From NCBI GenBank assembly GCA_973895155.1, contig OZ316891.1:964143-1028142 (forward strand): a stretch of 64,000 nucleotides of DNA, read 5' to 3'. Below the pieces are notes generated by a model, which was not told where the DNA came from, ran no database searches, and saw only the letters and a program-made list of their open reading frames with translations. Position numbers and translations under genes: made by a program. Position 1 is the stretch's first letter. Each line of letters begins with the position of its first letter. Shown here piece by piece: positions 25,573 to 53,668 of the stretch. The stretch comes from Marsupella aquatica (taxonomy: Eukaryota; Plantae; Marchantiophyta).

Positions 25573-25583
25573 CATGCGCAGGC

Positions 25584-27729: not shown

Positions 27730-28160
27730 GGAGTAGTAGCATCAGTTTGGACACAAGTTTTTTTGTATAAATCAGATCATTGAAATAAATGTGATCTTTG
27801 AACTAATGTACCTTGTTATGGTTGGTGGCAGTTGGGCTTATTTTACTGTTGGCGGATTGTTGTTTCCTGCTGCCTGGGGGTGTCACTGTAAACGTACATG
27901 CAAAGGCGGTACATTTGAGGACAGCGGAGGAGGTGGTGACACCCTCCAACATTTAGGAATTTTGTGTCATTCACTTGACAATAGGTACACTACTTGCGAA
28001 CCTGTTTTTTTCTTTTGGGGTGGTTTAGGGTGTGAGAATTTAGTACACGTTATGTTAACTCTTTTGGCAGATACAGTCAGGGATATATGGAACACAAATA
28101 CCACCATTAGGCATCCTTGTTCACTGCTGTCCATGACTGCAGAGCTCCCAGCCTGTTACA

Positions 28161-31100: not shown

Positions 31101-31891
31101 TAATGCTGTGTGGTTGTTCGTTTAGGGAGTATGAGTCATTGAAGGCGGCCCATCCCACTGCAGGAACAACTTTTCCAGGTTTCATGGAGTGGATCAGAGT
31201 GGCAATTAGAGAGCATCACGAGACCCACCCAGACATGGATGCAGATGTTTACCTACTGTCTAATGCCCCTAGCCTGAAAGTGAAGACTTACAAACGGATG
31301 AGAGCATATGGGAATCACTTCCGAGTGAAGGATGGTGACAGTGCCTATAGGGTGACGAATGACTGCGGGCTCATCACTGTATTTGAGCAACAGAGCCACA
31401 ATCACGACAGGGCCTGGATGGAGATGGGATATGTGGGAGAATTAGTTGACATATGGGCTCTGGACTATGGGGCGGTGTCCAGTCCTGTGATTCTTATGAA
31501 AGGTTCATGGGTGCGGCAGGATTGGCTTGGTAACAGGGCTACCATGAAGAGAGACAACGACGGTTTCTTGCTGGCCAATTTCAGAGGGAAATTGCCCGAA
31601 TGGTCTGAGCCATTTGTGTTTCCTAGTCAGGTGGAGCAAGCTTTCTTCCTGGATGTGGAAGACTCCCCAGGTTGGCGTGTAGTGTGTCATAAACAGGCCA
31701 GGCAACGTCGGATGGAAGGATCAAACCTTGAGTTTCATTTACACTCTCATAGTGCCTTTGATCGTCGGCGTTCAGACCAAGTGCCTGTAGTTCATGATAG
31801 CCGGGACTTCATTCCTGTGACAAGGGTAGATGCATTTGCTGAAGGAGGCGAATTCAGAGATGCAGATGCCAACAGTGTGCCTGTGCCATGA
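28161..31891 (+). pseudogene. tnpD: CACTA TnpD transposase (Transposase_21, DUF4218, DUF4216), frameshifted near 29612; introns ~29984-30107 and 31009-31125
   Basis: Motifs MRCPCAIC, IHACPDGHVLFRKEY, RNVRLGLSLDGVNPFG, YNLPPW, IDVMHIEKNICES, MKSHDYH, PPAFFDVMTHLLVH, RWLYPLERYM, PEASMAKGY and EPFVFPSQVEQAFF. The TI-DYPA motif is split by a frameshift. Confidence 0.93.
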
Positions 31892-32046
31892 GTAATGTGA
31901 ATTGTTTGCATGGACATTAGTGAGGGGAAGGATGTGTAATAAAGTAATTCTGAAGCAACACAGATGTATGGATGGATGCCTGGTGATTGTGGTTGCATTG
32001 TGTTATACGGGGTGACCATAGATGACATGTTTTTGTGGTCCAGTAG

Positions 32047-35000
32047 GATGGAATAGAGTGACACGGAGATGTGTGAGTATGAAAGGAAAGCTATGGAACA
32101 ACGAGCATACATGAAAGCCAAAATCGCAGAACTGGATCTGGAAAAGGATGTGGCTGAATTGTAAGGGAACGATTCTCAACTACACCCCTCCGCTGAGTTT
32201 GTGTGACATGAATAGTTCAATGTGGCACTGAAATTGTGACTATATTCTCATATTGGAATGTCGCAGAGCCACAGCATTTTCAAAGAAACAAAAGGAGTAC
32301 GCAAGAAGGGTGACCAGCACTATCTCTGGGCCTGTGCGTCGGAGTGACAGGTTGAGCAAGAAGGTCGTACCTACAATGGCAGAATGTGGAGATGACATTG
32401 ATGCTGCACAGGTGGGTGCAGACACTAGACAAGAAGATGCAGATGATGAGTATTTTCCAGAGGAAATGGATGAGGATGGGGGTTATGAAGATGAATACAT
32501 TGCAGAGCAGCCCCAAAAGAAACAGGTAAGTAGTTTTCCCAACAAGGTTTTGAGTTACTCTTGTTTAGAGGTTTCATATGTTCAGTACTACACATATGTA
32601 CCTTGCTTAGTTCCTGACATTGTAGTTGGTGATGTGATGCAGCGTCCTGCCAGTTCTGTTTTGCCTTTGAAGCCTGTGCATGCACCATACCAGCAGGGGG
32701 GCTGACCTCTGATCAAGGTTGGCGAGGTGGTAGTAGTGGTAGATCCCAGGCTGGTGCCCAATACTATGGCAGGGGGCAAGCTCTAGGTTATGCCCGTGGT
32801 AGAGGCAGAGCAGGTCCAAACCCACAATCTCGTGGGTATGGACGTCCACCTCAACCATGGGGATGTGAGTATATATCTATATGCCAGTTCTTTGTGAAGG
32901 CATGGCACTCCTGAATTTCAGACTGCATATCAATTTTTGACATTGTTTGGGATGTATTGGATTCAGACAACATGAAATTCTGTCCACCTGCCATTGCATG
33001 CAGATTCTGCCCAACCTGATTGGGCAAATGCTAATAATGATCAGTTCCAATGTCCACAAGGATAGACATGGGTTGAACCAGGTTGGGAGGATGGTGGTGG
33101 GTCGTGGAATGAACAAGGTTGGGAAGGTGGTGAAGGTAATTGGCAGGGATATCAAAATTCAGTACCTACAAACGCTGGAAGAGGGGCAGGTAATGTCTGA
33201 TCTTGTCAGCAATGGAAGAACTCATTATATGTGAGTCCATTCACGTGGGGGGGACTCTGCACATGTATAATGATAGAAAATGTATGTGTGCAGGTTGGAC
33301 AGTCGAACCATCGACTCAAGTATTCACTAATGCCCCTATGCAGATGCAGCACGGAAGGGGGACAGGTATGTCGGTGAATGTTCAGTTGTTTTCCTACAGT
33401 TTGTACTTAGTTTTCAGTACATATGTTTGCACACACATACCTAGAAAGTGACATCATCCGGCCCCTGTACTAGGCTGGACAGGTGGTCCAGGGTCGCAAC
33501 AATTTCAGAGTGCAGTCCCTGCACAGGCATCTACAGGCAGAGCTACAGGTATGTATGTTTGAAGAATTTTTCTTGAAGTGAAGCATTGAATGTTGCCGTC
33601 ATCCATTCTGCTATATGTAGTTGTCAAGCATGAATGGCATTGTATTTTCCCAGGTGGCTTCAGAACCCCAGGTAGGGTGAATGAAGGGGTGGCCAATACA
33701 ACGCCCAGTACTACCGAGAGCAGTGCACGAGGGGAGGTGACAAAGAAAGGGAACGTAAAGTTGAATGAGAGACAATGGGTGGATGCTGAGTGTCCTTGCA
33801 AGAACCGATGGCATGCTGATTTGAAAGCTGAAGTATTGCGTTGGTTAGATGTGAGTGTTATTAATTTTAAAAAACAGCATCCAAAAGATTGGAAGACTGT
33901 ATGTGAAAATGTTGCTGCCAAATGGAATTATATGGGCAGTGATGATGGCGTGGACATAGGTTGCCTAGAGAGTACAGCAGGTAAAATCATCAAGCAAGAG
34001 AGGTGGAGAATGCATAAGGCTTGGAAGGAAGGTGGGGAGAAGCCAGATATGCCTCCACCAGCCAGTTGTGATGATAAAGTGTGGGCAAGGTTAGTAGCTT
34101 ATTTTGTAACAGATGCTTCAAAAAAGAAGAGTTCACAGATGACCGAGGCCAGGTTGAGTGTTCAGAACCCTAATCTGACAGGAAGGACCGGCACTGCACC
34201 GACAGCTAAACGTTTGGTAAGAATGAATGGCCCAGCTATGTAATTTATGCTACACTATGTACTGTTTTTTAGTGTAAACCCATACATGTAAACTTTGTTT
34301 TTTAGTGTACGTTCCCTGAATATTGATCGATAACTTGTGTTTGCCATGCATGTGCAGAAAGCCCAATTGGGGCAAAGCCCTTCAAAAGAAGAGTTGAGGG
34401 CTGAAATTGTGAACACCCGGGCTCAAGAGGGTGCATCTGAATCCTCCAAGCATGTAAGTTATATGAGTTCTGATTGGTAATTGAATGACCTGCGTTGAAT
34501 TTCAGGTGTACACTGTGTGCATATATTGCCCAACATTTCATATGGAGTGATTGAACCTATACCCCTGTGTCATGTAGGGAGGTGGATCTCACTTACAGAG
34601 ATAAGTGGTCATTTGAAGGCTGTCAAAACATGTCTTCCAGAGATCAATGAACGTTTGAATTCATTGACTGACTTGTTCCATGTGAACTTCAAGACATTAA
34701 TGGAAGCTGTTGTGTCGGTGAGAGATAAAATTGATTCCAATTCTGCAGGAGTTCCACCATCACCACTTGAGGTGGCAAAGTCGATGCACTCTTCTGGCAT
34801 GCCAACGACATGTAGGCTTGAAGGTAAGGCCTTTACAACTGTGTGGGATATGATTATTAAATGTATAGTTTGAATTGACATTGTTTGTTGAATGTGTTAT
34901 TTTCAGTAACATATATTGTGGTTGTTGTGTCCATAGAGAATAAGACAGGTGCTACAGAGAAGAAGTATGAGAACCTGGCAAATACTCGCTGTAATTTAGA

Positions 35001-35733: not shown

Positions 35734-38700
35734 CAATGTCATGCCATTATTTGTTTGTAGTGTGAGTCATGTTATGTAGATTTTAGATGTCAAGAAGCAG
35801 TACAAGAATCATGTCCTCTTGGAGATTCATAGTATCATGCATGTGCTTTCAGTTATCTCATCCTACAGTCATCAATTATGAGTTCCTGTTTTGTCTGAAT
35901 TACATTGATCACATTGTAAACTATTCCATTGGAATTCAAATGATCTTCATTTTTTAGCAAGATTGTGATTGTGTTTAATTCTTATGAATGTTTTATGTAG
36001 GATCTGCTTATATGATGCTTTGTTTCATGTGGATGTCATTCATGCTATGTTCATTTCTTGTATTCAATGTGTTATATTTCTAAAGTTAGAACATCAGGTT
36101 TCTATGTATTGTAATGTCGAGTGCTCTCTCTCCTTATGAACTGTCCCTCTGTGTTCATTAGTCATGGTTATAACTTGCATGTGAACCTTATTAGTTATAA
36201 ACATGAGTATATAGAGTCCCAAATGGTTCTGTTGTGTGACGCGGGCCAGGGTCTCCATTGGTCTCTCTTGTGACACTAAATAGTCACACGCTAGTCGTTG
36301 TTGAATGCGGGTAAGTCATGTATGTGACTTACGATGTGACTCGCTGAAGTCATATTGCAGTCACGTCGAAACAAGGCTAGACTCCACAATAAAGTCACAG
36401 ATCAGTCACAAATGGGTATCAAGCAAGTTGCAAAGCCCAGTATCAATAGTGACTTCCATTTTTTGGTCTCAACTTTTGCAACTCCAAGGGTCACAGCGTG
36501 GGTCAAGTCACGTTGAGTCACAATGAAGTCACATGAGCCAAAATGAGTCACATATTGCGGTCTCAGTTCACCTCGGATTCTTCTAGTGGAGGTAAGGGCA
36601 AGATATCAAGGAGAGGGCAAGATGTCGAGGTGAGGGTAAGATTTTGAGGCAATGGTAAGATTTTGAGGCGAGACAAACATGGTTGTGCATTGCAAACATG
36701 TAATTCAGGCAAACATGTAATTTTAGTAAGGTAAAGAACTACTCATTAAAAGCTGGGGTTTTTAGGTGGATCAAACTCAAATATTGGATTTTCCATAATC
36801 CTTTCTTGCCCATTTCATGTGAAAAGTGTTGTCAATGCGGAGACCTTGTTCAATATAGCACAATCATGAAATTATGTAATCAAGTAATGTAATTCAAGTG
36901 AACGCAAAAATATGGGATAAGGCGCAAATGGGTAATGAGAGTACATGGGCAAGAGTTAGGTAAGAAATCCTTATTGTTAATGATACAAAAGATGGAACAA
37001 AAGACCGGAAAAAAGATGCAAATGGGGGCAAAGAGCTGGTCTCCAGACTTGGGAAAGGATTAGGGCAAAAGAAAGACTAATAGAGATGAGGGGGCATGTC
37101 AAGCAATACATGTCTTGTGGAGAAAAGATGTTGGGAGCTTGATATTCTTGGTCTTCATTAAAAATGCATTTTTTGAAAAGATTTTCAAAGAGAATGTTGG
37201 AGATATAGATGGAATAACAAATTTGGGACCGATCTTCTATACAACAAAAAACAAAAATATAATCAAAACATGTAAAAAATAGTGGACTTTGCTTTTGCAT
37301 TTTTAATTTATTTTGGAAGTAGATGTTGTTTTGTTGTGAAAACTATATTGTTGGGGAGAGCAAGGATGTGGGAGGGTGAGAGCTAGTGCAAGAGAGATGA
37401 TGGCCCCAGGTGCTTTGATACTATTGGGAGGGGAATATTTTATTTTTTTCTCTCCCATTTTTTCCCATTTTTACACTCCTATGCAACACCATTACTCCCT
37501 TTTTTTTACATTGGCACCATTAAATAAACAGAAAAAATGCACAAAACATGATGTCGGACCTATCGAGAAGGGTGACCACCCTTCTCATTTTTCATGATCA
37601 ATTTTTTTTCTAAGGCATGTAAAACCCGATACAAATTGTGCATTCCAGAAAAATAGTCATCCATGATTAGGAGGAATGCAAAGATCGATACGGGTATCGA
37701 CCTTTGCACTTGTAAATTCTTTGGTTATCAGAAATTTACAGAAATGGTGAAACTGTGCATAACCGCGCAGTAGGCTCTAACTATGGTTAAGTTTAACTAG
37801 GGTTAAGCTAGAAATTAACCATAGCTACCTCCAAAAGTATAAATATGACTGCCCGCTCATGGAAAGAAGTTTCATTTTTTCAAGTCCTCTTTCACAATCA
37901 AGCTCTCACCCAACCCAAAGAAAACCTCCTCTCCATACAGATGCGCATTCTGGTCTTAAGAGTAAGCTTCCACTTTCCAAAGCAAACTGTGATACTCGTA
38001 TCATAATCAGCTTTGTAGAAAGCAACTTGCGATACTTGTATCATAAGTTGCATTCAAACCTAAGTTTCAAACCCTCAACAATACAGGTATCGCTTGGTGC
38101 ATTGAGCCAACTCAATTAGTCTTATGGTGCAGGAGTGAAAATACTTCAATCATGGTTTAGATTCTGTCTCTTGAAGATTGTAAAGCCGTTTGCTGCTCAT
38201 CTCGCAGTTCTTCATATTATGTTGGGGCCCTTATTTTCTCTTGGGTAGCTGTTGGTCGGATCCGAAAGCCAATAGCGATACTTGTATCACTCTTTGGATT
38301 GAGTAGTGTAGATTTAGGACGGACTGCACTGCAAAGATCATTGGACTGGGTCACTCGTGACCTCTAAGGTGGACCTGACAAAACCCCACCTAAACAAACA
38401 CAAATACTCTGTTCCGTTCGCTTACAAGCAAAAATGTGCCCAACAAAAGTTGGGCTCGACAATCTTTTGAGTGCCCAAAGAGTGACGGCCTCGTGTCTAT
38501 ATATATCCTCTCCCATACAATGTTTCCCATTTTTTCTTGTCTTTGTGAGAGCTCGTGTGAGAGATTTTGGAAAGGAGCATTGTTTGGCTAGAGAGGAGAC
38601 TGAGGACGTGGTGTGGCCTGGCTGATTCAAAAAGAAATAGTTTTACCCTGTAGGCAGCACCAGAACAAGTTCTAGAGGCGGCGCAAATGAAGACAGTGCG

Positions 38701-39764
38701 AACCATGGTTTGTACTGTGAAAAGGATTTGGTCTGCTTCTTGAGTCATTTCCCTTAGTTGGTTTTGCACAAATAGTTTTTGAGGCATTCCGTGTGGCTTG
38801 TGAAAGACATATTAGATAGTCGTATTGCTTCGAGTAGGAGTCTTTGTGTTTTGTCATCTAAAGAGGAATCGGCGGATGGATTGGAAAGTGTTGGCCCAAT
38901 CCGAAAGCAAATTGCGGTGCTTGTATCTCTCTTGGGATTGAGTCATGTTGTTCTCAGAATTAAGCTGAATTCAGTAATCCCAGTTAAAACATCATAAATT
39001 AACTAGAGACTCCATTAGAGCCTGCAATCTTGTATCTGTAGCCCGATCGTGGATTCATGGATCCTCTTGGGGGTTTGTAAGGTGTTGGCTTGTTAAGAAA
39101 GCAAAGCTTGTTCTCTCGTTCTTCTCTCTTTGCTCAATGGCAACATTCCCAAAGAGCGGAGGAAGACTTGCAAGTCTGAAGGACTTAGAATTCATCGCTG
39201 TCGATTTGGCCATTCCCACAATAACAATCATGACATAGTACTTGCTCAAATTGATGCAGCCAAAGGGCGACGAAGGAGAGGACAGTGAGTTGATCGTAGT
39301 CACCACCGGCAGAGAAGGAGTTGCAGCTTGTCATGTCTGTCAATCTATCTTTCCTTTTGTTCCAATTGTTTTGTAAGTTGCTCTTTTGCATTGATGCGGG
39401 CATTGGCGATTCTTCTGCGATTTTGAGTTTTGAGAAGCAGATTAAGTGATCAAATTGATAGTTTACATTGATTGCCAGTATCGTCGGCCTTTCTTCATTT
39501 TTTGAGCTTCCTGAGCTTCAGATTTGACTCACCGGCACTACATGTCATTGTGCAGATGGACAACGATAGCCTTGACCCTTGCTGGATTAGAACCACATGA
39601 GAATCGATAGCAGCTCCCAACAGACGCCCCTGCTCAAGGTTCTTGGACCCAGTAGAAAGCAACTTGGATGCCGTATTCAGAAGAAAGCAAAGCACGATAC
39701 TTGTATCGCTCGTGGGATTGATCAAGCAGTGTAGATCTCAAATTTGATCTGCCAAAGGAAAACA

Positions 39765-42700
39765 ATGGAAGGAAGTGCAAGGACAGGGTCTGCTGAGATC
39801 GAGAACCTCATGACAACTTTGTGTAATGTGATTTGGATGACAGAAGATATTTGTGATGAACAAAAGTTTGTGAGGAGACCTTGGTACTTTCGGGATACTC
39901 GAATGATGTCCAAGGAAGCAGCTGACTGGGAGACACCCGTTCTTTGGGTTCAAGTGAAGAAAACAGAGAAGATTACACTCTCCTTTGGTCCAGTAATTGG
40001 GGTTGCCGCATGTGACTTTAAGAAGGGTCATGGGAAGGAAAAATCTGTCGCTATTGGATTGAGCTTCCTCACAATGTGTGGAAGCAAGGGTTTTGTGGCC
40101 CTTGTCATGGACATGGATTTGTATGATCTCTCAACATTAGACAAATTTCCCGAAGACCCTATTGTGAAGGAAGTTGCAAGTACAATTGAGATGGAGATCT
40201 TCAAGCCTGAGTGGGTTGCTAATGTTGTGGATGATTCGAGTCCTTTGATGCTGCCGTTTGTCCAAAAAGAGTATAAGAGACTCGTGGGTGAAGAGTTTAA
40301 ACCCACACGAAGGATCAAAGTAAGGAAGCCAACCATTAGCGGGAGTGGTGCATCTTTAGTTGCAAAAGGAGTTGATTGTGCTAGTGGGAGCGGGGGACAT
40401 GGGAAAGGGAATTCCCAAGTAGAAGCTACAATGAGAGTGATTCTAGGTGAAGCACCTCAATCTGTAGAGGCAAGCCCAGGCGCTACTGCAAGTGTTGGTC
40501 GTGGTCGAGGTCGTGGTCGTGGAAGAGGTCATGGAAGGGGAGTTGTGGATGAATTGGTACCTGTCGAGGCAGAGGTTCCATCGCCATCAACTTCACTTGC
40601 AAAGAAGAAGAGGACTGGTTGGATTGGAGGCACAGGAGTAGCTCTAGCTGCAGATTCAAGTGGTGCAATAAGCACTCCAGCTGTGTCAATGCATCAATCC
40701 AAAGAACGATTACCCCTTACCTCAGGTCCAACCTCAGCTGTCGTTAGCATTCCCCTGGTAAGTTTATTTGTCTAGAAAAAATGAATGTTGGGAGCGATAC
40801 TTGTATCGCGCATTGCATTGAAATAATGAAAATTATGGTTTGCATTTTGAATTCTTCTTAAAATTCATTGCAAGCCATGTTATTTTTCAGGGAGATGAGG
40901 AAGAAGAGACGCCGTTGGCTTCATTTGAGACAGATGCCATCAAGGCTGAACTTGCAAAGCTCATGCTTGAACGCAGAGTCCAGAGGACCAGTGTGCTTCC
41001 ACATGTCAATAATCTCATTTTTGAAGATGAGGGTGAGAATTCAACTTTAGTTAGACCTGTAGATCGGCTACATGTAGAGAACATCAAAATGTTGCTCATG
41101 AAAAACCCTTCCAACTTCACGGCTCCATTTGTTGTTGTAGTTGATCCAACAGATTGTCCCACAATTCATGAGTGGGACATTACTAAATCTAGGGTATGGA
41201 AGTATCGAGTAATTGGCGGTAATCATGGAGCTCGTGCAAAGGCTGAACTTTTCAAAATGTATGGAAAGCAAGTGTACGGTGAGATTGAGGCATGGGTTTA
41301 CTCTGGTCTAACGAGACATGAGATCAGGATGCTGGCTTTCCAGCATAACTACGACCAGGAGTACCGTAAAACCATGACATTGATTGGCAAAGTTCGTGCC
41401 TGTCACAATATTTTCATGGAAATGAATGTGGGGTCAACTAAAGAGGTGCGAGAAGCTTGTTGTAAGGAATGTATGCTTGATTACACTCCAGGTGTTCGTG
41501 ACTCAATGGCCAAACATGACCCTACATTTCAGATTGCCTTTCGATCTGGGGAGATTTGGGAGCTCCAAGATAAATTTTTCTCTATGTGGCAAAAGTTTGA
41601 GATCCTTGGTCAAACAAAGCCAATCGTGGCCAAGCAGCCGTCAGCAACATCAAAAGGTAAATCAAAAGCTAAACCTAAACCGCTGAGTGCAAGTGAAATC
41701 AAAATGAACAAGCTCTCTGGGCATTTCAATTTGAGGGTCTTCAGAGCTCTCCAGGGGCTTTCCAATCAGGAGCATGTGAAGCGACTCCTAAACAGAGTAA
41801 TTGGAAAGAAAATCACTCTAGAACAAATGTTCAAAGAAGGTGAGACACTTAAGAAGTTGGCAAAGGTAAAGAAATTGTTCCTGCAGATTTCTGGTCAAAA
41901 AGATTGGGCAACATGCCGGGAAATGTTTCCCCAGGAAACTGATGTGAAAGTCCTTTCAACTTGGTGCGAAAAGCTCATAGAAGCAGTAAGCACAATGTCC
42001 TTATGGCCTTTTGTTTTCAGTTATATATATTCAAAGCAAACATTTGAGATATTGAATGCAGGTAGTGTTACTTGTATCACTGGTGGCATTCAAAATTTGT
42101 GTTTGGAAATCTTACAAAGAGTTTTGTTTAATGTGCAGTTCAAAATCAGTTCAAAGAGGAAGAAAAAAGTCATTTCTGGAAATGAATTTGATGAGGGCGT
42201 GGAGGTCGAGATTCCTTCATGCGACATCCCCTACGTCTTCAAGAACTATGTTCTTGAAGCAATTGAAAAACACAATCGGAGACTGAATATCTCATCAATT
42301 GCTACAGCTTCATCTCAACATCAATGGAAGAATGCAAATGGAGACGCATTCTCATATTCTATTCATGTTGGAGATATTCGGAAACTAGAAACCTTTCTAG
42401 AGCCAAAACATTTCACTTTGGCAATTGCAGACATCCCGTACGGTTTCAATGCCCCTGGTTCTCAGTTTGACGAGGAACCTTTCACTGAACAGGATGTAAA
42501 TGAGATGGTTACTAATTTTGCTAAAATCACCACCTCTCCATTGTGGAGGTTTGTTGTGATCCATTCCTTGCAGCAGACAAATAGCGTTATGAGCGCACTT
42601 GAGAAGGTTTGCAATTGCGGAGTTGAGGCCGGTATATATGAGAAGACAAACATCCATGAGCACCCTTCTGGGCCAAGGCTAGCTTGGGCCTTTGAGAACT

Positions 42701-43119
42701 GGTCAATTGGTTATTACAGTGAGGATGGAGTCCGAAAGAAGGAGATGTACAATTTTGCTCCTGATGAGTCCAGGGTGAACATTGTGAAAGTTCCCTGTGT
42801 TACTACAAAGTCTATGAGTCCATTAGGGTTTATTGTAAACCCTTACCAAAAACCAATTGCATTGGGTGATTGGTTTGTTAATCATTTCAGTGAGAAAGGG
42901 GACTGGGTGGCAGACCTTTGTTGTGGAACCGGGTCAACATTGGTGGTTGCACTTCTCAACTCTCGGAATGGGTGTGCTGTTGACAAAGGTGAGACTCAGG
43001 TAGAATTTTTGAGGAGTCGGATTATGACATTGGAATCTGTTTGGACTCTATACGATGAAGCACAAGTGTCCGGTGAAGGTGGCCAGGGACAAGAAGTTCA
43101 GCCTCCGGTTGGTGGGTAG
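39765..43119 (+). CDS. ParB/Srx-like domain + beta-class DNA amino-methyltransferase (N6-A/N4-C) fusion; exons 39765-40757 and 40891-43119, with a probable in-frame intron at 41986-42138
   Basis: ParB-like VRPVDRLHVENIK...PFVVVV...YRVIGGNHGARA...EIRMLAFQHN. The MTase region has GDIRKL..FTLAIADIPYG (motif IV), NPYQKPIAL and GDWVADLCCGTGSTLVVAL...GCAVDK (motif I). Catalytic-before-SAM order indicates beta class. The phase-0 GT-AG intron joins the two ORFs. An RG repeat lies in the linker. Confidence 0.88.
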
Positions 43120-43419
43120 TTGGGAGTCATTGGTACTAGCATTTATGTGGATACTGATGACTAGGAGGAGCCTGAAGAAAATGAGCCAAACATTGAAGAA
43201 AAGCTACCTAGAACACCGGACGACGGGGAACTCAATGATATGTTGTTAGATTAGATGTGTGCAATAAAACTATTGAGGATTTATCAAGGCTTTCTATTAA
43301 TGATTGAGAACCTTGATAAACATATCTCTATTTGAGGTTTGAAATGCAATTGGCGATACATGTATCGGATGTAGCATTCCCAACAACATTCCTACCTATC
43401 TGCACTTTTCCTACTCTAA

Positions 43420-46400
43420 CTAGTCACAGTCATCTGCATCAATGATTTCCGTGTCAAGCATTGCTGCTTGGATGATTCGCTTTGTTTGTACTGGAAGCGT
43501 GTTGTTTGAGAGCAGTGCAAAATTATATGCATAAATTGCAGTTTCTGAGAGGCACAATGTGTCCTCAAGTAACTTGTTAGAGGATGCAACTTTTTCAGGG
43601 TAATATTGACCTTCCATAGCAGACCCTTCTCGAGAATCCATTGTATACCATACAATTTTGATGTTCTCTGGAACATCTTGTACTTTGGATAGAATATCTA
43701 TGACTTTTGCCATCCAAAATGGTCTGCTGTTTGGATCCCTATATGCAGCCACGCAAATCATTGCATATTTAGTGTTCACTTCAAGATCTTTGAAGTCTCC
43801 CTCGACTGCTTTCTTCTTCCTTGTTCCAGAGTACATGACTGTTGTTGCACCTGCAATTTTATCTAGCAAGGCTGGCTCTATTTGTGGGGGAAGTGCATTT
43901 CTTGGAGTCTCTACTCCAATATTTGATTTTGGCCACGTCCAATCAAAAACCCATTGTCCTGCCTTCAAGTGGTGTTTAATCACTTCTTTCTGGTTGTCAA
44001 AGAAACGGAGCCACCAAAGTTTATCCTCATCATCAAAGTAATTGAATCCATCTTCAATTGATTTGCGATATTTCTCCAGGACTGCAACATGGTTGCAGAG
44101 AAGATGCTCGTCTCCATTGCCTCCGTCATCATGTTCATCATTCTCCACTGTTGCTCCGGTTGTAGATTTCAATGCCATTTGTGCAGCAACCCACATGGTA
44201 GATGTGGGGATGTATCTAAGGAACTCCACTGCTTCTCCCCAACTTTGAGTGCTAGAAAGATGCTTTGCGTGAAACAAAGTTGAAGTTCCTCCATTCTCTC
44301 CTACAACCCTCTTCATCCTAAATTGCTTTTGACCACTAATACAATGTAGAGGACACAAAACATGCCCAATACCTCCCATGTCATTGGGTTGGTCTTTATC
44401 CGACACAAACTTCTTGAAATCAGCAACCTCTTCAACAAAGATTATCTCAGCCTTTGGATTGTACGAATCCTTGAGAATGTCTGCAAGACTATCCACCCGA
44501 AAAGCTTTTTGCTTATTTAATTTTGAGGAGAACTTGCTGAACATTTGGTCAATCTGATCATGGGTATGTCCAACCAAAAGAAAACCAACTTTGATCTTTT
44601 GGAAAACCCTCATCTCAACAAGCATATTCAAATATGCCATGAGAAATTTATTTTTATTTTCTCGAGGGGTATTATCAAGTTGTAGATACAACACTAGAGG
44701 GAGTGGACCTTTCCAACTATTTAAAATATGTTGGATCACATGCACTGTCAAGTTGGTGTCATTGTGAATGTTTGGATAATTCAAAAACACTTTTGATGTC
44801 AAATGTCCATTGAACACCAAACAACCCACCACATGTACCGGAATAAAGTACTTCTCGTCCATGTTTTTGGGGCACCTAGTGAAATGTGGCAACTCAGTCT
44901 TTTTTTGATCCATACCATCAATGCAGATCCTCAAATATTTTTCTGGACTCTTATAGCACTTGCTTCGGTGCTTTGCTAATTTCTCCCTCTCAACTCCTTG
45001 TGCTTTCCGATGTTGGTTCAAAAGTGTTGAATATTTTCCTGTCAAATGAACATCAATGTTTTTGTCAATAATAACCGCATCACCAAACCAAACAAGTAAA
45101 TAATGTAGTACTTAACATCAATCCTTTACTTATTTAAAGGTAGACACAACTTACGTTTTTCTGCTTCAAGTACTGCTTTGTCGCGAAGTGCTTTGAACTC
45201 TGTGCAAGGACCGCATGTGGAGAAGCGACTCTTTTTTGGAATACGCACCCTGGGGAACTCTTTGTTCCAGATGCGAACAAACCAAGAATATGTGATCTCG
45301 GTTTCCTTCCGCACCATAGTATCAGTCTTGAAAGCATCAAATACTTCAGCTTTCGTCCAATTGTCTGGTAAGTGGAAGATGTCCTTGTTTGGAAGACTTT
45401 CAACATTTGACATGAAAAACTCATTCAACCATTGAACTAGTGAAAGATGAGTAACCGATTTTTCCTTGCAAAATGTGTCATTTTGAATACGAGAAAACGT
45501 ATTCCTTGAGATTCTCTGCAGCCGATTATTTCCAACGGAAAATAATTTCTTGAAACCTTCTCGAAAAAAAGATCTCCCGTCAACAATGTAACCGGTTGGA
45601 CCACCGTGCCCACTTTTCAAACAGCCCCTTAGAAGTATGTTCTTCTCGGTCGATGATAAGCCATAATAGAAGGTCCGGTGTTTTGTCACTAAATCTAGAC
45701 CAAAATATCTCAAACACAAATTATCACAACATGGGTACTTAAAAACTTCTTTCATTTTTTTTGTCTTTAAATTTTGATTTGTAACATTATCTTTCCTCAC
45801 AAGCTTGTCTCTCACTTTCTTGCTAAGCTCCTTTTGTTTCTCCATACTGTGAAATCCATGGAGTGAATTTTCACTCTCTTGTCTCTCTGCAACTTCCAGA
45901 ATAGAGCCATTAGTATCTTTTGAGCTACTATCATCTGAAGATAGAGTGGGATTTCTCGGATCACTAAAGAGATGACTATAGCTACTCTCGCCCTCATTTG
46001 TTTCCAAACATTCTGATACAACTTGTGCAATGGCTTGCAACTGTCTATTTTCCTCAACATCTTCCTCCTCACTTGACTCATCAGAAAACACTATTGGACT
46101 TCTTGGTTCTCTGTACATAATTTGGACTCCGCTAAAACTAGTGAGGCCTCGTCTAGCAACTTGAAGACGTCTAATTGGCTGTCTAGAAACACTCCTAGTT
46201 GCAGAAGTGGGTCTAGCGGTCATCAATGGTGTGTCTTGATTGTTCCCCAAACTTGTATTGTGTACACGAGCGGCTGCCATTGGTCCATTGATTGGAGAAG
46301 CATCGAATAATCGTTGTACACATCTCCCCACTGCAATTTGAGATTGCGTAGATTCTGGACTTTGTAGTCCGTTGTCTTTGCTGTTGCTGGGAACCAGTTC

Positions 46401-46961
46401 TCTTTGACGCAATGCAGACGGCGATCCACGTATCGTTGTGTGTATTGTACCTTGCGTTCTCACGTCTGTCCCAAGAAATATCCTTCGCTGCACCTGTGGC
46501 AAAACTGATTCCCTCAAAGGCAATGCAAATGGCGATACACGTATCGCTGTTTGCATTCGACCTTCTCTTCTCTCCTCTGGCACCTGTTGGAAACTTGAAG
46601 CGTCAATTGGAGATCCCAATCTCGTTGCCAATACGCGTATCGTCTTCTTGATTCCTTCACCATACCCAGGGATAGACGGTCTAAATCGACGTCTAAAACC
46701 TAAACCTTGGATAGAAAGCTTTTGCATCCGAGGGGAGGGAATGTTTAGGAGCCGACGTTTATCAGGTTTACTAGGTGACACATAGTAAGCCCCAGGTTCT
46801 GGTTCAGAACTTCCATCAGAATCAGAGTCCGATATTTTGGGTACACTCTGTTGAGAAACTGGGAGTAATTTGCGAATATGATTTGGCAAACATCGACGAC
46901 CATGAGGACCACCATTGGGGGAGGACTCAACTGAACTGGAGGGCGACCACTCTTTAGACAT
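43420..46961 (-). CDS. Sola1-like/DUF7869-type DDD transposase, intact; exons 46961-45155 and 45038-43420 (~1141 aa)
   Basis: Motifs CIDGMDQKKTELPHF, LYLQLDNTPRENKNKFLMAYL and GFLLVGHTHDQIDQMFS. Upstream there are Cys motifs CCDNLCL and FSTCGPC and a long disordered N-terminus. The intron rebuilds an R codon in frame. The 4-bp TSD fits Sola. Confidence 0.85.
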
Positions 46962-48844
46962 GGCTAACGTATAACTAACTCTATACTGGTGGGCATTCCT
47001 GTCACAAAATGCTCTTATATGCTCAAAAAACTCAAATAGACGCATAACTTTGTGAAACAAAATGGTGCAAAAAACTTAGTCGGCGTTGATGTATTTATAG
47101 TTTTTGGTGACCCTGAGCCACGTGGCTACTTCTGATTGGTCAGCCGCTACACGACAAAATAGATTGGGTGATTAAAAAAGGTTCAAATTAGTGTTTTAAC
47201 GACAAAATTAATGTACATGTTAAGTGTTTCCTCCGGGGTGGATGCAATTTTTATTCTATTTGGGATATTGTACTGTGGGTTGCTTTAATCAACCATTGAG
47301 ACAATTTGGTTCTAGATGCGATACAAGTATCGCTTTTTGCATTTTGGGGTGATTTTTTCAAATTGGTCCTGTAAAAGGTGCACATATTGTGCTTTGGAGT
47401 TATGTACCATAGTTTTGCTGATTCACAATCACTTTTCACGATGGTTAGGCGGAATGGTTACCATGATTTTGTCACTTAGTTTACTTTCTGGTTAAAAGTA
47501 GATCAACTGCGTTGAACTGTGTAGTAAATTTTGGGCAACTATGATGTAACTTTTCAAATTGTTGATAGTAAATTTTTTGAAAGGAGAGGTTGAGCTACTT
47601 TTGGAGTATATTCTCAAATGATGAATGTGGTTTGCGATACGAGTATCGCTAGTTGCTTTCCTTTATGTGTTTGGGTTTGGAAGCAAAACTATTATGTGTA
47701 CAAGTTGACGGAAAATAAGGATTTTCCATGTTGGAAACAAAGTTGAACGTTGTCAACAACAAACAGTACATTTTGGAAGTTTAAATATATATAATGAGGT
47801 AGTCTGTGGGCATTGCTCACCCCTTCAATGAAATCCCATCTACGATACAAAAATGTAACTACTGGGATATTGCGGAATTTTGGATGGCTATTTGTGTCAT
47901 TTCAACAAAATTGGCGAGAATGAAAAACACCCTTCTCTATGTGCGGAAATACTTCTCAATTGGTCCGAAATCATGTTACAACTAAATATAGAGAAGAAAA
48001 AGAAGAAAAAGAAGAAGAAAATTAACACATTTTCCTTCCTTCTAGAGTCTCACAGGCTCTGTAAAAATCCAAAATTTCTCATGCCCCAAAAGATTCTCCC
48101 ATCATTCGTGTGTACTTTTATATTTAAGATGATATCACATAAGTATCTTCTAATATACGATGTCAGATCAGTATCGTCTACTATACTTTGTATTTTAGTA
48201 TTAAAATGAGCATATCATTTGACATACCTGGTCAATCAATCCAAGGGTACAAAACAATCTTTGAAAAAATCTGACGGCTCAGGTTTGTTCCCTCCATTTC
48301 TGAATTTGTAAGCGGACGAAAGAGCTTTTTGGCGGCATTGCATATTATAGAAGTAGATAAGCATTGGAAAGGTTTTAACTAATGAAGGTACACACATGGG
48401 AAGGAGAAACTTTGGGGTTGACAAACTTTTTGGATTTTTTCATAGAGTATAATCATGAAACTTTAAAAAGAAGCAAAATGGATTAATTTTTCTTTTAACC
48501 CCGTTTTTTTTCTTCTCTTTATTTAATTTTGCATTTTTTTAGTATATTTAATGGTGCCAAAGGTAAGAAAGAGGGGGAGGAATGGAGTGGCGAGGGAGTG
48601 AAGAAATAGGAATTAAAGGGGAAGAGAAAAATTAAAATGCTCCCCACCCAATACCATTGTGCGACCACACCTTGACCCTGTAAAGCCATCACCTCTCTTG
48701 CACTCCCTCTCACCCTCCCACATGCTTGCTCTCCTCAACAACATAGCTATCACAACAATGACAACATGGTCGCAATAACATTTGAGATGTTTAAACAATT
48801 TTTTTGCCCTACTTGCATTTCTTTGCATTGTTTACATTTTTTTG

Positions 48845-49446
48845 GCGGATGACATTTCTTTGTCTTGCCTCAACATTTTTGCCTCACAACAACATCTTTG
48901 CCACACTTTAACATCAGTCTAAACTTGCCTCAACATCTTTGCCTCACCTCAACAATTTTGCCTCACCTCAACAATATTTCCTTGCCTTGACATGGCTGCA
49001 ATGACATATCACATGCCTGAATGAATGTATACCTTGCAAAGCCTATATTTTCTTGCTTCACCTTGACTTCTTTGTCTTGCTTCAACATCTTTTTGCATCT
49101 TGACATCTTTTCTTGCTTCAACATTGTTTTTTAACTCAATGTCTTTGCCCTCCTTTGACATCTCTTTTTGGCCTTTTAACATTTTTCCTGCCTGAACATC
49201 TTTTTCCCTGTCTTTTCTCACCTCAATCAATATATTTGTCTTGCCTTGACATCTTTTTCTTTCATCAACATCTTTTCCTCACCTCAAAATCTTTTTCTCT
49301 CCTCAACATCTTTGTCTTAACTTGACATCTTTTTCTCACCTCAACATCTTTTTCTCTCCTCGACATCTTTTTCTCACCTCGACATCTTTTTCTCACCTCG
49401 ATATCTTTTTCTCACCTTAACATCTTCTTCTCACCTCGACATCTTC
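48845..49446 (+). repeat. 19-bp tandem array (ACCTCGACATCTTTTTCTC), reverse complement of the 17598-18190 array
   Basis: Repeated units are visible directly and are most regular at 49320-49446. Confidence 0.9.
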
Positions 49447-49759
49447 TATGCAACTGACGGGCATTGAGCTAGTCTTACTATAATAGTGCATTTTGAAGCC
49501 TACTATTAAGGCCAGGCCTTAGGTCTAAGTGCAGCCTAGCCCGTAACTCCCAATATAAACAAAGCTTTGTAACTCCCAACATAGACAAAATTGATAATGA
49601 GATTCAATATGGTCAAATTTTAGTGGAAGACTTACAAAAGAGACATTGACTCTAATTAAAGATAAAAACTGAAAGTAAGGTGAACCAAAAAAGAGTGGGG
49701 CAAAGACCAACCAGATAACATAATTTTTTTTGTTTGTGCAATAATCGTTTTAGTGTCTG

Positions 49760-49969: not shown

Positions 49970-52369
49970 TCTGCAGGGGCCTGCTATAGTCATAATCTGC
50001 TCTCCTGAAAAGTCTAGCCGGTAACCTCTTTCCGGGCAGGAGTTACATACGCTAGTGCAGGTCTGGGCTGGGGTTATAGAATTTAACCTGCTCCCGGAAT
50101 ATTCAAAGGCGCTTTCGGGCTACCTGTGGTCAACTTCTTTTCATAGTTTTCATAGTCCGGAGGCAAGGTTACAGCCTAGTCACCCTGCCCACACCTACAT
50201 TACCCTATACATAGCGCTTGTGGGTTACAGAGTAAAATATTCCGTGAGCGAAGAGGATTCGTGGGAAGCCAGTGACTCCGTGACACCATGGTCTCCTTCT
50301 TTCTGGGCTTCTTATCACTACAGGCCTGCAAGTCCACCTGTTGTCGACTCGACCGGCAGCGAGGGTTGTTGCAAAATCCACTTGCTCACTCGACCGGCAG
50401 TGAAGATTGCTGCACTGGACAGAGTTTGAATCAAGGTCTGGATCAGTCTCCTTTGCTGGATGTGTGGATCGAACCATTCGACGAGGGTTTCACACAATTG
50501 CCTGAAATTTGACATTTCGGCTGGCTTGCAGATCAGTCTGGGAGCTTACAAAATGAGGTACGTTACATGTCCATAACCATTTGACCACGCTCAACAGAGT
50601 GGACGATGATACTGATTGAGGATGTTACATATCCCTTGTTGTGCTTTTGGCAAAGCTCTCCTTCTTCGAAGTATGTTGACCGGTTTTTGGCTTCATTGCT
50701 TCGTTCGAGATATCCATGGTACTGAAGAAGGGATAAGATGTTCATGAGTGATTTTTGTTCGGAATGCTGCCACTAGCTTTGATTCACTGAGGTACATTCC
50801 TGTTTTCATGGCTTTTGCTTGAATTTATGACACTGGCCATTACTCATCGACTGCCTTCAACGCAACTGACATTTCATAGATTGATGGCACTGGAATCCAC
50901 GCAGGATCGCCGACTGATCGAGGAAGTGCCCTTGAAGTTCCCTTTCAACTTGATAGCTTGGTTCTACTAACTGTGCAACGGAAGGGTACTTCCATGCCGC
51001 AGTCACTTCGGGATCGACTACTGAGGAAGCTCGAAGTGTCAGTTAACAAGCTCGGGCTAGCTGCAAGAGAAGAGCCATCGGAAATGCCAGTGGGAAGTTG
51101 GCAGCTGCCAAATCGTCGGGCACTACTGCCGTCGGAACCACTGCCGTCGGAACCACTGCTTGAGCATAAGATTCCAAGGTTTTCATAAACTCCACGCAAG
51201 TATTCTCTTGACACCCAATTCATTTTGACATTGCTTCTCGTGATATTTCACTGGATAGTTTTAACATTTTGCTTTTGCTATGCAAACGTACTTCAAATCT
51301 CTTCGCATCAGTCAATGATGTGTCCCGAACTAGTGCTCACAGAAGTGAGGCCTACTCGTCAATTCGATGAGGCAGTATCGAATCGTCCTATTCGTAAGTT
51401 TGTCACATTCGCTTGAAGAGAAGCAGATCCGGTCAAAGTGAACGCAGTGAACTGATGTACCTTACTATCAGCTCCAACCTTTTGTCCCTTAAATCTGTTT
51501 CATCTACGGCCTCTAGTTGGACCATGATCTCCGCTTCGCCTGTTTGTAGAGCTTCTCGTTTGTCCTTAGAAAACATATTTTTGCCACAAGAGTTCAACGT
51601 TTCAACGTTAATACTAGGTTCCTCTTATGGGTCTAACAGTCTTTACAAACCCACCGTACTTTAGTTCAGGGGATGGATCTGTCGTGTTTTCGAAGTTGTC
51701 ATCGGCACTTCTAGGAATTCAAGACAATAAAAGATCGTATGTACTTCTCTGTTTTTTGGCGAGCGTCGTGAAAGCCTTATTCCAAATAACCTAATCTACC
51801 GCCCTATATATTGCTTTCCTTCTCAGGATCTTGGGTGGCTCTGTGATGAGAACCAGCAGACATCAGCCGCTTCTCTTACCCTGCCGGTTGGTTTCTTCTT
51901 CCAAAGTTACTATCGTTTACAGAGTATAAACTTTAACTAAATTTGTATTATAATTTAGGTTTAAACCTGCCTCGATAATTATTGACTAAAGAGTAAGCCA
52001 ATTAATTTTTGACTTGTTATTCTCTCTTTCTTTCTCTGTGATTGTTAAATTTGACACTGTAAATGGTAGATTTCAGACAGATTCTTCAACACTTCTTAAG
52101 TTTAGGGCGTTGTTTCGGACACCCGTCACCAGTTTTTTTGTTTTCATGCCTTTGACAGATGAGCTACAGTAGCTAGAAGCTTGTGAACGGTGTTTGGATG
52201 GAGTCCATCTTCGAAAATCAGCAACAGGTATGCAAGGGGTAGATCGTTGATTCCCTTGGCCAGTTCGGAATTATGTGTCGTTTCCTCAGTTGCTCTGCAG
52301 GAGTACTCTCCAAGGAGGCAGAGTAGATAGAAGACACGAGGAAAGTTCCGTTCCAGGACTGTGGCGGAA

Positions 52370-53401
52370 ATGGAAACCAATCCGTTTGCCATGGGGAAGG
52401 CGAGAATAGAACTTCTGCAGATCAAATCCGATGTGAATGAAATAATCGATAAGAGAATTCATTCTATCGAGACTGCTAACCGTGAAGAGAGGATGGCACT
52501 AAAAGCTCAGGTTGCAGAGGAAAAGGAACTACGAAGGTCTTCTGAAACTGCATTGCGAAATCAGATAACCTTACTGGAAAAGGAGCGAAACGTTGTTTTA
52601 GTTGATGTACAGATCAAGACGAGGGAATTAGATTCTATGAGAATTATGCAGAAGAAAGCTGAAGATGAGCAAAGGAAAAGAGATCAAGATTTCGCAGAGA
52701 TGAGGAACTTATGGCAAGCGGATAAGCAGAAGCTAATTGCAGAACAAGGTGCATTGAAGGCGGAGATGGATGCTAATCTGTTGTCATTGACTAGCAAAAT
52801 TAGCGGGCTGCAAACTGAACTCGAGGCATCAAGGGCCACAACGGAAAAATACTTAACTTGGTGGTATGAGTCTAGAACGGAAGAAATCAAACTACGGCAG
52901 CTAAAGCCGGAACTACGAGCACAGAAGGCCAAAATCAGACAAGCGGAAGTCAAACTACGAGCAGAGAAGAAGCGTCGGGAAGTTTCTCAAGTCGAACTAC
53001 GAAGGGAGATCAACATAAAGCTAGAAGATCTAAACAAGCGTGTACTAACTGCCGTCTCATCGATAGTCAAAATACGAGATAAGAGAAACGAACTGCAAGA
53101 AGCAAACGAAGATCTAGGAGCTGCCCAAGATAAACTACTGAAGGAGAACAAAAGACTCCGAGACGAGAAGAAGAACCTGGCAGCTGCTCATGAGACTGCG
53201 ATCCAAAACATTGTACAAGAAGAAAGAGAGAAAAGCATGTGCCAGATCTGTCTGGACTCTCCAAGAGATACCATCTGTCTGCCTTGTGCACATTTCAATT
53301 ATTGTTTCACCTGCCTCTCAAAACATAGACGGCGAAGTAGAACTTGTCCTACTTGCCGAATTGTGCTCAGTGGCATACTTAAATCCGACATTACTTCATA
53401 G
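52370..53401 (+). CDS. Coiled-coil + C-terminal C3HC4 RING E3 ligase-like protein, intact and intronless (~343 aa)
   Basis: A long E/K/R/L-rich heptad region is followed by CQICLDSPRDTICLPCAHFNYCFTCLSKHRRRSRTCPTCR. Confidence 0.9.
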   Translation: METNPFAMGKARIELLQIKSDVNEIIDKRIHSIETANREERMALKAQVAEEKELRRSSETALRNQITLLEKERNVVLVDVQIKTRELDSMRIMQKKAEDEQRKRDQDFAEMRNLWQADKQKLIAEQGALKAEMDANLLSLTSKISGLQTELEASRATTEKYLTWWYESRTEEIKLRQLKPELRAQKAKIRQAEVKLRAEKKRREVSQVELRREINIKLEDLNKRVLTAVSSIVKIRDKRNELQEANEDLGAAQDKLLKENKRLRDEKKNLAAAHETAIQNIVQEEREKSMCQICLDSPRDTICLPCAHFNYCFTCLSKHRRRSRTCPTCRIVLSGILKSDITS

Positions 53402-53519
53402 TCGGGGCCTTGCAATCTTTTTCGATCTGATGACCCATCGGGACAAGGGGATTGTCATCATGGATATGGTTTTAGAGCTAGATGGGAAGCTTAAAAGTAG
53501 TGCTCTCAGTTCGAGTGAA

Positions 53520-53668
53520 TGCCAATATCTACATCAATACCACTTGAGCCTCTTCGCAATACTTTCTCTTTGCTGTAAAGTAATTACACTCTTTGCCAAT
53601 ATCTACATCAATACCACTTGAGCCTCTTCGCAATACTTTCTCTTTGCTGTAAAGTAATTACACTCTTT
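53520..53668 (+). repeat. 74-bp tandem duplication in the RING 3' region
   Basis: TGCCAATATCTACATCAATACCACTTGAGCC...GTAATTACACTCTTT occurs twice. It is single in the paralogous copy near 60510. Confidence 0.92.

Follow-up and report, generated by a model that had tools for sequence, protein, structure and literature searches.

Which protein, if any, reads a palindrome that recurs throughout one transposon and is missing from the DNA around it? The question is raised by a 64,000-nucleotide (nt) stretch of the liverwort Marsupella aquatica (assembly GCA_973895155.1, contig OZ316891.1, positions 964,143 to 1,028,142 of the forward strand; hereafter the window, with coordinates counted from its first letter), in which two convergent genes, one encoding a ParB-like DNA methyltransferase (the ParB-methylase) and the other a transposase, lie between ~330-bp long imperfect inverted repeats. 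An original prediction, made from the letters alone, held that a 14-bp palindrome occurs about 14 times within this element and nowhere else in the window, and drew an analogy to parS. Here we find that the site array is real, functional-looking and conserved, and we propose, at even chances, that it docks the element's own ParB-methylase.

A bipartite palindrome confined to one element

Scanning the window for CGATACNNGTATCG yielded 7 exact matches, at 37686, 39695, 40795, 43354, 46533, 47319 and 47635, exactly where perfect copies had been predicted; the expected number was 0.00, and none of 100 dinucleotide-preserving shuffles contained any match. With up to one mismatch the count rose to 12 (0.02 expected), adding 38030, 38079, 38276, 46422 and 46629, and with up to two mismatches to 13 (0.66 expected; shuffle maximum 3), adding 37990, so that all six copies described as near-perfect were recovered. 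All 13 matches fell within 37686-47648, a segment that makes up 16% of the window. Repeat finding and an alignment of 15 copies placed the 14-mer, as the core, within a longer bipartite palindrome of ~40 bp, GAATGCA-N4-GCGATAC-NN-GTATCGC-N4-TGCATTC. Its half-site consensus reads (G/C)AA(T/A)GCA(A), three free bases and GCGATAC, the two halves facing each other across a free 2-bp centre. The copy at 38915, already described as degenerate, has three core mismatches and retains both outer arms, as does an extra copy at 42066. The element therefore holds 15 composite palindromes and one solitary half-site, sixteen sites in all: the predicted copies stand, yet the set is larger than the roughly 14 proposed and the 14-mer is only the core of a longer unit.

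The confinement of the motif also held when single halves were scored. With a half-site weight matrix at a threshold of at least 10 bits, 31 of the 35 matches lay inside 37545-47979, and the four outside scored 10.3-13.7, within the background range (3-12 such matches per shuffled window). Neither the pattern scan at up to two mismatches nor the half-site matrix found a paired site in the other 53 kb of the window; as predicted, only bare hexamers occur there (3 of the 14 copies of CGATAC and 7 of the 20 copies of GTATCG).

The alignment further bore out the claim of conserved arms around a variable 2-bp spacer, as in a site for a dimeric protein. Information content was 1.0-2.3 bits in both blocks of each half, as against 0.1-0.4 bits in the 2-bp centre and the 3-nt linkers. 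Core positions were complementary across the dyad in 12-15 of the 15 copies and linker positions in 4-7, the centre and linker positions taken together (1, 9-11 and 13 away from the dyad) being complementary in 2-7. Because the linker is complementary in so few copies, the pattern agrees with a protein dimer that reads each half separately rather than with a hairpin. Near-perfect copies depart from the consensus mainly by CpG to TpG/CpA changes, and the 15 cores contain 29 of the element's 241 CpGs. Some copies share longer flanks, with one repeat of 60 nt (38250, 38889 and 39669) and another of 71 nt (46398 and 46509), which shows local duplication; inspection of the flanks of the copies revealed no flanking duplications.

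We then placed each site relative to the genes. Six sites occupy the 2.2-kb non-coding left part of the element. Palindrome 1 (37673..37712), with a perfect core at 37686-37699, sits just inside the left inverted repeat, and is followed by palindrome 2 (37977..38016; core at 37990 with two mismatches, both CpG to TpG/CpA), palindrome 3 (38017..38056; core at 38030, one mismatch), palindrome 4 (38066..38105; core at 38079, one mismatch, left outer arm weak), palindrome 5 (38263..38302; core at 38276, one mismatch), which lies within the 60-nt repeat common to 38889 and 39669, and the degenerate palindrome 6 (38902..38941; core at 38915). Palindrome 7 (39682..39721), with a perfect core at 39695, lies upstream of the ParB-methylase, 57-70 nt ahead of its ATG. 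Both GT-AG introns of that gene hold one site each: palindrome 8 (40782..40821; perfect core at 40795) in intron 1, and palindrome 9 (42053..42092; core at 42066, three mismatches, both outer arms good) in intron 2; the transposase intron holds none. Palindrome 10 (43341..43380; perfect core at 43354) lies between the stop codons of the convergent genes.

Three further sites are in frame within a non-conserved N-terminal extension of the transposase reading frame: palindrome 11 (46409..46448; core at 46422, one mismatch), palindrome 12 (46520..46559; perfect core at 46533), which is the highest-scoring copy, and palindrome 13 (46616..46655; core at 46629, one mismatch). These three (46409-46655, minus strand) share one reading frame, are 111 and 96 nt apart and each encode Ile-Arg-Val/Gly. 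Either the extension is translated and tolerant of the sites, or this long open frame is non-coding. To the right of the transposase frame, and thus upstream of it, lie palindrome 14 (47306..47345; perfect core at 47319, left outer arm missing), palindrome 15 (47622..47661; perfect core at 47635) and the solitary half-site (47830..47849, plus strand; 16.5 bits). Conserved coding sequence contains no site at all.

With respect to the element ends, 12 of the 16 sites lie within ~1.8 kb of one end, six in the left 1.6 kb and six, including the half-site, in the right ~1.8 kb, when a foldback insertion in the right arm (described below) is discounted. The sites at 39695, 40795, 42066 and 43354 lie 2.4-6 kb from either end, so the motif is not confined to subterminal regions. 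The outermost ~360 nt at each end contain no site. On each side the outermost site, which on the right is the half-site, is ~369 nt from the repeat boundary by raw count (again discounting the foldback), the alignment of the arms having ~31 nt of net indels.

The element encodes a predicted ParB-fold methyltransferase

The ParB-methylase gene lies on the plus strand in three exons. Exon 1 (39765..40757) encodes 331 amino acids with an RG-rich tail and ends at the donor CTG/GTAAGT at 40757/40758. Intron 1 (40758..40890; 133 nt, GTAAGT..CAG, phase 0) is followed by exon 2 (40891..41985; ParB/Srx N-domain, a helix-turn-helix (HTH) of ParB type and a helical region), by intron 2 (41986..42138; 153 nt, GTAAGC..CAG, in frame) and by exon 3 (42139..43119), which carries the N6/N4 DNA methyltransferase domain. 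The intron calls in both genes of the element rest on GT-AG signals, frame and relatives; in the relative P0001, from which the intron 2 stretch is absent, the ParB part and the methylase are joined without it. We assigned exon 1 to the same gene as exon 2 because exon 2 opens with conserved sequence that no ATG precedes. The exon-1 domain matched no Pfam family and no word-sharing homologue, and the faint resemblance to Transposase_28 suggested by Atlas, which at 0.84 fell short of the cut-off that the tool sets for trusting its calls, was set aside.

The C-terminal domain matches PF01555 (N6_N4_Mtase) with an expectation value (E) of 3e-7. Its motifs run in the order DIPY, QKP and CCGTGS, and D98, P100, Q237, K238, P239 and G265 (the motif-I glycine) are invariant in 13 relatives. 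We take this motif order to be that of the beta class, with the leading D presumably favouring adenine-N6.

For the ParB part we turned to structure. A single-sequence fold model reached a predicted local distance difference test (pLDDT) of 36.9 and was not used, while an AlphaFold model of 40891-42009 built on 61 relatives reached a pLDDT of 89.2 and a predicted template-modelling score (pTM) of 0.77. In Foldseek, all 11 matches at E<=1e-3 were to ParB or Noc, the best being Noc 7ng0 (7.6e-6); KorB, PadC and sulfiredoxins came after these 11. VIA-align placed ParB 7bnk at Z 10.4 over 169 residues, Bacillus subtilis ParB 6sdk at Z 10.1 over 186 and Noc 7ng0 at Z 10.0 over 191; in all, the N-domain plus HTH (model residues 31-329) aligned to ParB, Noc and KorB at Z 8.4-10.4 over 158-191 residues. 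The N-domain alone matched 7bm8_A at Z 10.0 (root-mean-square deviation 2.3 Å, 99 residues), with sulfiredoxins at Z 7-9. The structures matched across the two methods were 7bnk, 6sdk, 7ng0, 8qa8 and 4umk. By this model, exon 2 is predicted to encode a ParB/Srx-fold N-domain directly followed by an HTH domain, and the ParB label attached to the methylase in the original prediction is borne out by fold. ParB proteins bind cytidine triphosphate (CTP) through the boxes GERRxRA and ENLQR. Aligned by eye to these boxes, the protein has GGNHGARA and QHN(Y/I)DQE, with H112 and N153 nearly invariant in 26 relatives.

The site array is kept in sister elements

For the exon 2-3 protein, a HMMER search of 1.84 billion representatives returned 516 relatives at E<=1e-3, mostly fragments. 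Scanning metagenome contigs with a four-sequence alignment of the N-domain gave four loci (L001-L004). Three of them, L001, L002 and L004, bear sites and encode relatives 49-56% identical to the ParB-methylase of the window; L003, a contig of 1,086 bp that is nearly all coding, has no site. By tblastn, the order exon 1, ParB exon, methylase exon is the same in L001 and L002, and L004 has the first two before the contig ends. Each of the site-bearing loci also has, upstream of the ParB exon, a homologue of exon 1 at 31-33%. Identity to L001 and L002 is 63-64% in the methylase domain, as against 51-54% in the ParB part. L002 also retains the C-terminus of a convergent transposase in the same place as in the window.

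The site array is conserved across these relatives. L001 contains 11 exact copies of CGAKACNNGTMTCG (0 expected), L002 has 20 matches to CGATCNAAACATCG at up to one mismatch (0.02 expected), and L004 has three sites, at 948, 2054 and 2129 (0 expected). A GAATRYR outer arm stands 4 nt outside the core in all three. The cores follow a common 7+2+7 frame: GCGATAC-NN-GTATCGC in the window, GCGAGAC-NN-GTCTCGC in L001 (where some left halves are CGATAC and the copies are nearly perfect 38-bp palindromes), CGAGAC-GG-GTATCG in L004, and CCGATCC-AA-ACATCGG with one outer arm only in L002. Nature thus offers site variants with T or G at core position 4 and with one or two outer arms, and CGA is kept at the same core position in every core of all four elements (the window copy, L001, L002 and L004).

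The placement of the sites is likewise shared. None of the 31 sites in L001 and L002 falls in a tblastn-matched exon; their four clusters lie before exon 1 or at its very start, in the two gaps that separate exon 1 from the ParB exon and the latter from the methylase exon, and past the stop. In L004, site 948 precedes the matched exon 1, and the stretch separating that exon from the ParB exon contains sites 2054 and 2129. Judged from these sequences, the array is a conserved family feature at 49-56% protein identity, with a stable outer arm and a drifting core.

Several of these sites also have a direction. Mixed cores in L001 (1749, 3392, 3447, 4700 and 4761) always read CGATAC..GTCTCG on the methylase-sense strand, those in L004 (948, 2054 and 2129) always read CGAGAC..GTATCG on that strand, and all nine L002 units before exon 1 and after the stop share one orientation.

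A young family with a slightly decayed copy in the window

Four public sequencing runs (X1-X4) contain 70-76% of the window's sampled words. In X1 the flanking host genes (50051-60000) were covered at a depth of 16-19 by contigs with 0 differences, as compared with 77-111 and ~0.5% differences in the element interior; in X2 the flank stood at ~50-60 and the interior at ~190-220. The family stands at about 5-7x single-copy depth. Such depths, which reflect copy number only roughly, correspond to some 4-7 near-identical copies. By its sequence, the family looks young and several-copy, with genes that appear intact.

Among the differences listed between the window copy and the X1 family, the window had T or A where the family had C or G in 32 cases, and the reverse held in 11. 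This bias is as expected from deamination of methylated cytosine, i.e., in a cytosine-methylated, silenced copy. At least five family-majority differences fall in the motif, and all five of those listed restore the consensus. A family-majority G in place of A at 38003, 38043 and 46630 returns CpA to CpG, which at 38043 and 46630 makes the cores of palindromes 3 and 13 perfect and at 38003 brings that of palindrome 2 closer to the consensus; G at 39694 gives GCGATAC in palindrome 7, and T at 37709 restores the outer arm TTGCAT in palindrome 1. The family majority would accordingly have at least nine perfect cores, and the window copy reads as a slightly decayed member with private changes. More abundant relatives of the outer repeat diverge from the element at 37545, seen as a contig break, before the first site.

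Candidate readers of the sites

The palindromes are thus specific to the element, bipartite, absent from conserved coding sequence and kept in sister elements. We propose that they form a conserved cis-acting array at which the DNA methyltransferase encoded by the element, with its ParB fold and HTH, would dock as a dimer; this is our preferred model, and we give it an even chance of being correct. The HTH pair would read the 16-bp core, much as ParB, Noc and KorB read palindromes of 14-16 bp, and the outer arm, one helical turn away, could be read by a second, more conserved module, for which the methylase domain and the exon-1 domain are candidates. Tethered at about one site per kb, the enzyme might write N6-methyladenine (6mA) or N4-methylcytosine (4mC) on the element's own DNA and nowhere else, and such a self-mark could counter host silencing or time transposition. 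We count in favour of this model that the sites follow the methylase gene, both of whose introns hold a site, while the transposase intron holds none.

Several observations weigh on the other side. Pfam ParBc gave no match in the query or in 26 relatives, and a profile search of Protein Data Bank (PDB) sequences found nothing. The HTH alone matches modestly for a helical domain (Spo0J-parS 4umk, Z 6.0 over 97 residues, model residues 159-321), and of the CTP box GERRxRA only the final R-A is kept in the by-eye alignment. The L002 sites, having a single outer arm, are asymmetric and harder to reconcile with a simple dimer. That the core shifts alongside protein divergence, as seen over three sister loci that are all short, is an anecdote and not covariation. 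Moreover, the transposase is encoded by the same element, its convergent C-terminus being present in L002 too, so co-occurrence does not separate the two proteins as readers; and the concentration of 12 of the 16 sites within ~1.8 kb of the ends, the outermost at similar distances, resembles subterminal transposase sites.

This last point leads to a different reader. The palindromes could be subterminal and internal repeats bound by the DUF7869 transposase, helping it to find and pair the ends much like the 12-bp TnpA motifs of En/Spm, with the ParB-methylase as unrelated cargo; this is the main rival explanation, and we consider it unlikely. It would account for the balance of six sites in the left 1.6 kb and six, half-site included, in the right ~1.8 kb (foldback discounted), and for outermost sites that lie immediately interior to the long inverted repeat, at ~369 nt from its boundary; the conserved Cys-rich N-terminal domain of the transposase could bind DNA, and L002 keeps a transposase as well as sites. 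Yet both ends are empty over their outer ~360 nt, the usual place of transposase binding, four sites lie deep in the element, the transposase's own intron is without a site, and in L001 and L002 all 31 sites surround or interrupt the methylase gene. The higher-copy relatives of the terminal repeat, which diverge at 37545 before the first site, argue in the same direction, if indirectly, provided that they transpose. The sites might instead be the methylase's own substrate, or regulatory sites through which a host factor, e.g., a methylation-sensitive plant DNA-binding protein, controls both genes, leaving the HTH without a sequence-reading role. A CGA kept at one place in every core would always present a CpG or an adenine, and of the 241 CpGs in the element 29 belong to the cores; the methylase ATG has a site 57-70 nt ahead of it, and the transposase frame has two to three upstream; and across elements the outer arm is the most conserved block of the site, as the methylase is of the protein. 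We nevertheless hold this to be improbable: promoter elements would hardly be expected in introns or in the gap between convergent stop codons, a host-factor site would be expected outside the element too and none is found in the other 53 kb, and a 40-bp bipartite dimer-type site far exceeds usual methylase targets. Less probable still is that the palindromes act by structure, whether as a cruciform in DNA or a hairpin in RNA, or that they are very small palindromic inserts, mobile and spreading within the element. Each copy can fold on itself, those of L001 almost perfectly over 38 bp, some window copies share longer flanks (the 60-nt and 71-nt repeats), and three copies stand in frame in an open reading frame, but linker and centre are not kept complementary (2-7 of 15 copies) while each half follows the consensus, the L002 units lack one arm, and the window shows neither copies outside the element nor, in the flanks inspected, duplications beside those within it.

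The docking model can be carried further by analogy, to a full ParB/parS-like module. Its dispersed sites would load a ParB-methylase that spreads and writes 6mA/4mC over the whole element only; sister subfamilies would come to differ in core specificity, much as plasmids differ in partition specificity, and the outer arm would be kept for the enzyme module. This extension is conceivable, though we doubt it. The parS analogy of the original prediction holds for the size, symmetry and multiplicity of the sites; it falls short in that no ParA partner was seen in the element and that the CTP-binding box, as aligned by eye, reads GGNHGARA against GERRxRA. The earlier interpretation as a whole is therefore partly supported.

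Relation to known systems

The closest parallels in bacteria are ParB-parS, Noc-NBS and KorB of RK2, in which a ParB/Srx N-domain is likewise followed by an HTH. These proteins bind 14-16-bp palindromes present in many copies only on their own replicon, to be compared with the 16-bp core and the 15 copies plus one half-site described here. KorB operators are scattered over the whole of RK2, near promoters and between genes, a spread similar to that of the element's sites. The element differs from these systems in its eukaryotic host, its cut-and-paste transposon setting and the absence of any ParA-like partner that we could see. Its protein differs in being fused to a DNA methylase and a 331-residue N-terminal part, in a CTP box that by eye departs from GERRxRA and in the lack of a ParBc match, and its sites differ in their extra outer arms, which bring them to ~40 bp in all. 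Among plant DNA transposons, En/Spm (CACTA) carries 12-bp TnpA motifs that are subterminal, present in many copies and both orientations, and bound by an element-encoded protein. The present sites resemble these as a short motif repeated within 1-2 kb of both ends, and differ as dimer-type palindromes with a bipartite half that also occupy introns and the gap between genes and are absent from the outermost 360 nt.

The concept of a self-binding ParB-like modifier has algal precedent, proposed in 2025. The 21.5-kb element Sola1-1_Ec32 of the brown alga Ectocarpus carries a gene for a 1,104-residue ParB-like/N4C/N6A methylase on the strand opposite its transposase, and its authors propose that ParB-like/methylase proteins bind and modify their own transposon (PMC12477816). 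The two elements share a ParB-like plus methylase protein of roughly 1,050-1,100 residues, a DDE transposon and a long imperfect terminal repeat (282 bp there, ~330 bp here). Sola1-1_Ec32 has a 4-bp duplication and AACCG..CGGTT termini that were not found here at 37323/48767, and the main text of that paper names no binding sites, the terms "palindrom" and "subterminal" occurring 0 times in it. Giant Plavaka elements of the red alga Bostrychia carry tandem inverted-repeat arrays beside PAG3, a ParB-like protein with a 2-oxoglutarate (2OG) oxygenase, for which self-binding and self-modification are proposed (bioRxiv 10.1101/2025.02.11.637652). There too, a DNA transposon encodes a ParB-like domain joined to an enzyme that modifies DNA, and has inverted repeats near the gene. 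Plavaka differs in having an oxygenase instead of a methylase, another transposase superfamily, and tandem arrays beside the gene in place of single sites and small clusters scattered through the element, introns included. The ParB call for PAG3 is a weak HHpred match (E 0.29, according to the Methods of the preprint), compared with a confident fold match here. The likeness to both algal proteins is one of domain make-up and published description. A review by Iyer and Aravind additionally mentions Dam-type methylases fused to ParB-HTH in chlorophytes and chytrids.

In the literature searched, links to eukaryotic transposons or to ParB-methylases appeared only in the two algal papers, on Ectocarpus and Bostrychia, and in the review by Iyer and Aravind, none of which describes the element's site; nor did the search find such sites for a ParB-methylase or in land plants, with the proviso that the preprint supplements may hold repeat details. 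What appears new is therefore the site itself, its bipartite build and the way it drifts from one sister element to another in a plant-type genome.

If the ParB-methylase binds the array, this would be a compact, sequence-defined way for a eukaryotic transposon to target a DNA-modifying enzyme to itself. It would bear on how transposons escape or shape host silencing, on the origin of non-canonical eukaryotic 6mA/4mC and on the reuse of bacterial ParB clamps after transfer, and the protein-site pair could serve as an orthogonal tethering tool. Should the transposase bind instead, the array would amount to the first map of cis-elements for DUF7869 transposases, a family that is widespread but unstudied.

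Anatomy of the element and its surroundings

The left inverted-repeat arm spans 37323..37648, its outer boundary being uncertain. The right arm is split into an inner part (47862..47979) and an outer part (48530..48767) by a 549-bp foldback insertion at 47980..48528, which resembles a miniature inverted-repeat transposable element (MITE), has arms at 47980-48004/48504-48528 and 48057-48099/48403-48445, and is not part of the element proper. At the foldback, family contigs stop at 47977 and depth is ~5-fold above the element interior. The outer portions of the arms (37323-37541 against the reverse complement of 48767-48530) are identical in 178 of 219 aligned columns, and the inner portions (37545-37648 against the reverse complement of 47977-47862) in 71 of 102, with a local score of 44 against a control maximum of 29. 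Reading the flanks at 37323/48767 gave no matching target-site duplication, and weak similarity and minisatellites continue outward, so the termini are provisional.

The transposase lies on the minus strand. Exon 1 (45155..47075) encodes a conserved, Cys-rich N-terminal domain from residue 448, the preceding 447 residues being the open extension that bears palindromes 11-13. The intron (45039..45154; 116 nt, GTAAGT..CAG) meets exon 2 at the acceptor 45039/45038, and exon 2 (43420..45038) carries the DUF7869 catalytic core and the C-terminus. The sole Pfam match of the protein is to PF25273 (DUF7869; E 1.2e-48), a term that had no match in the literature searched. Of its 91 relatives, those with names come from ferns, a liverwort and amphioxus, and the amphioxus relatives P0077 and P0078 combine a Ulp1-type peptidase C48 domain with DUF7869, a fusion known from other plant and animal DNA transposons. 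Scans with both proteins found no relatives of the methylase or the transposase in viral contigs. Likewise, no ParA-type ATPase partner was seen in 37545-47979, where the two genes account for all long frames; other frames of at least 80 residues are short or overlapping, and no Pfam search of the short ones was made.

On either side of the element, in inverted orientation, lie related minisatellites (36586-36681 and 48850-49470), and they recur at 17600-18186 and 19034-19164. These last adjoin a solo fragment at 18662-19032 that resembles 37029-37490, and their depth in the public runs is in the thousands. The fragment, which resembles the terminal inverted repeat, contained no site by pattern and half-site scans, an absence of little weight in a solo arm. 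The minisatellites may mark true, longer element ends or a separate repeat that hosts the element.

Further out, a CACTA/En-Spm transposon adjoins the element at 28137-34243 (plus strand), perhaps from ~26800, with Pfam matches to Transposase_21, Transpos_assoc, DUF4218, DUF4216 and Transposase_24. It is of plant type and, like the named relatives of the transposase, suggests that the host genome is of that type too. Just before its transposase, at 25557-27729 (plus strand), are frames with NSD-like PHD fingers and BRCT domains, either a host gene or captured cargo. Dynamin-like pieces (Dynamin_M and Dynamin_N) lie near both window ends on opposite strands, at 1004-2267 (plus) and 55916-58845 (minus), and may be a duplicated gene.

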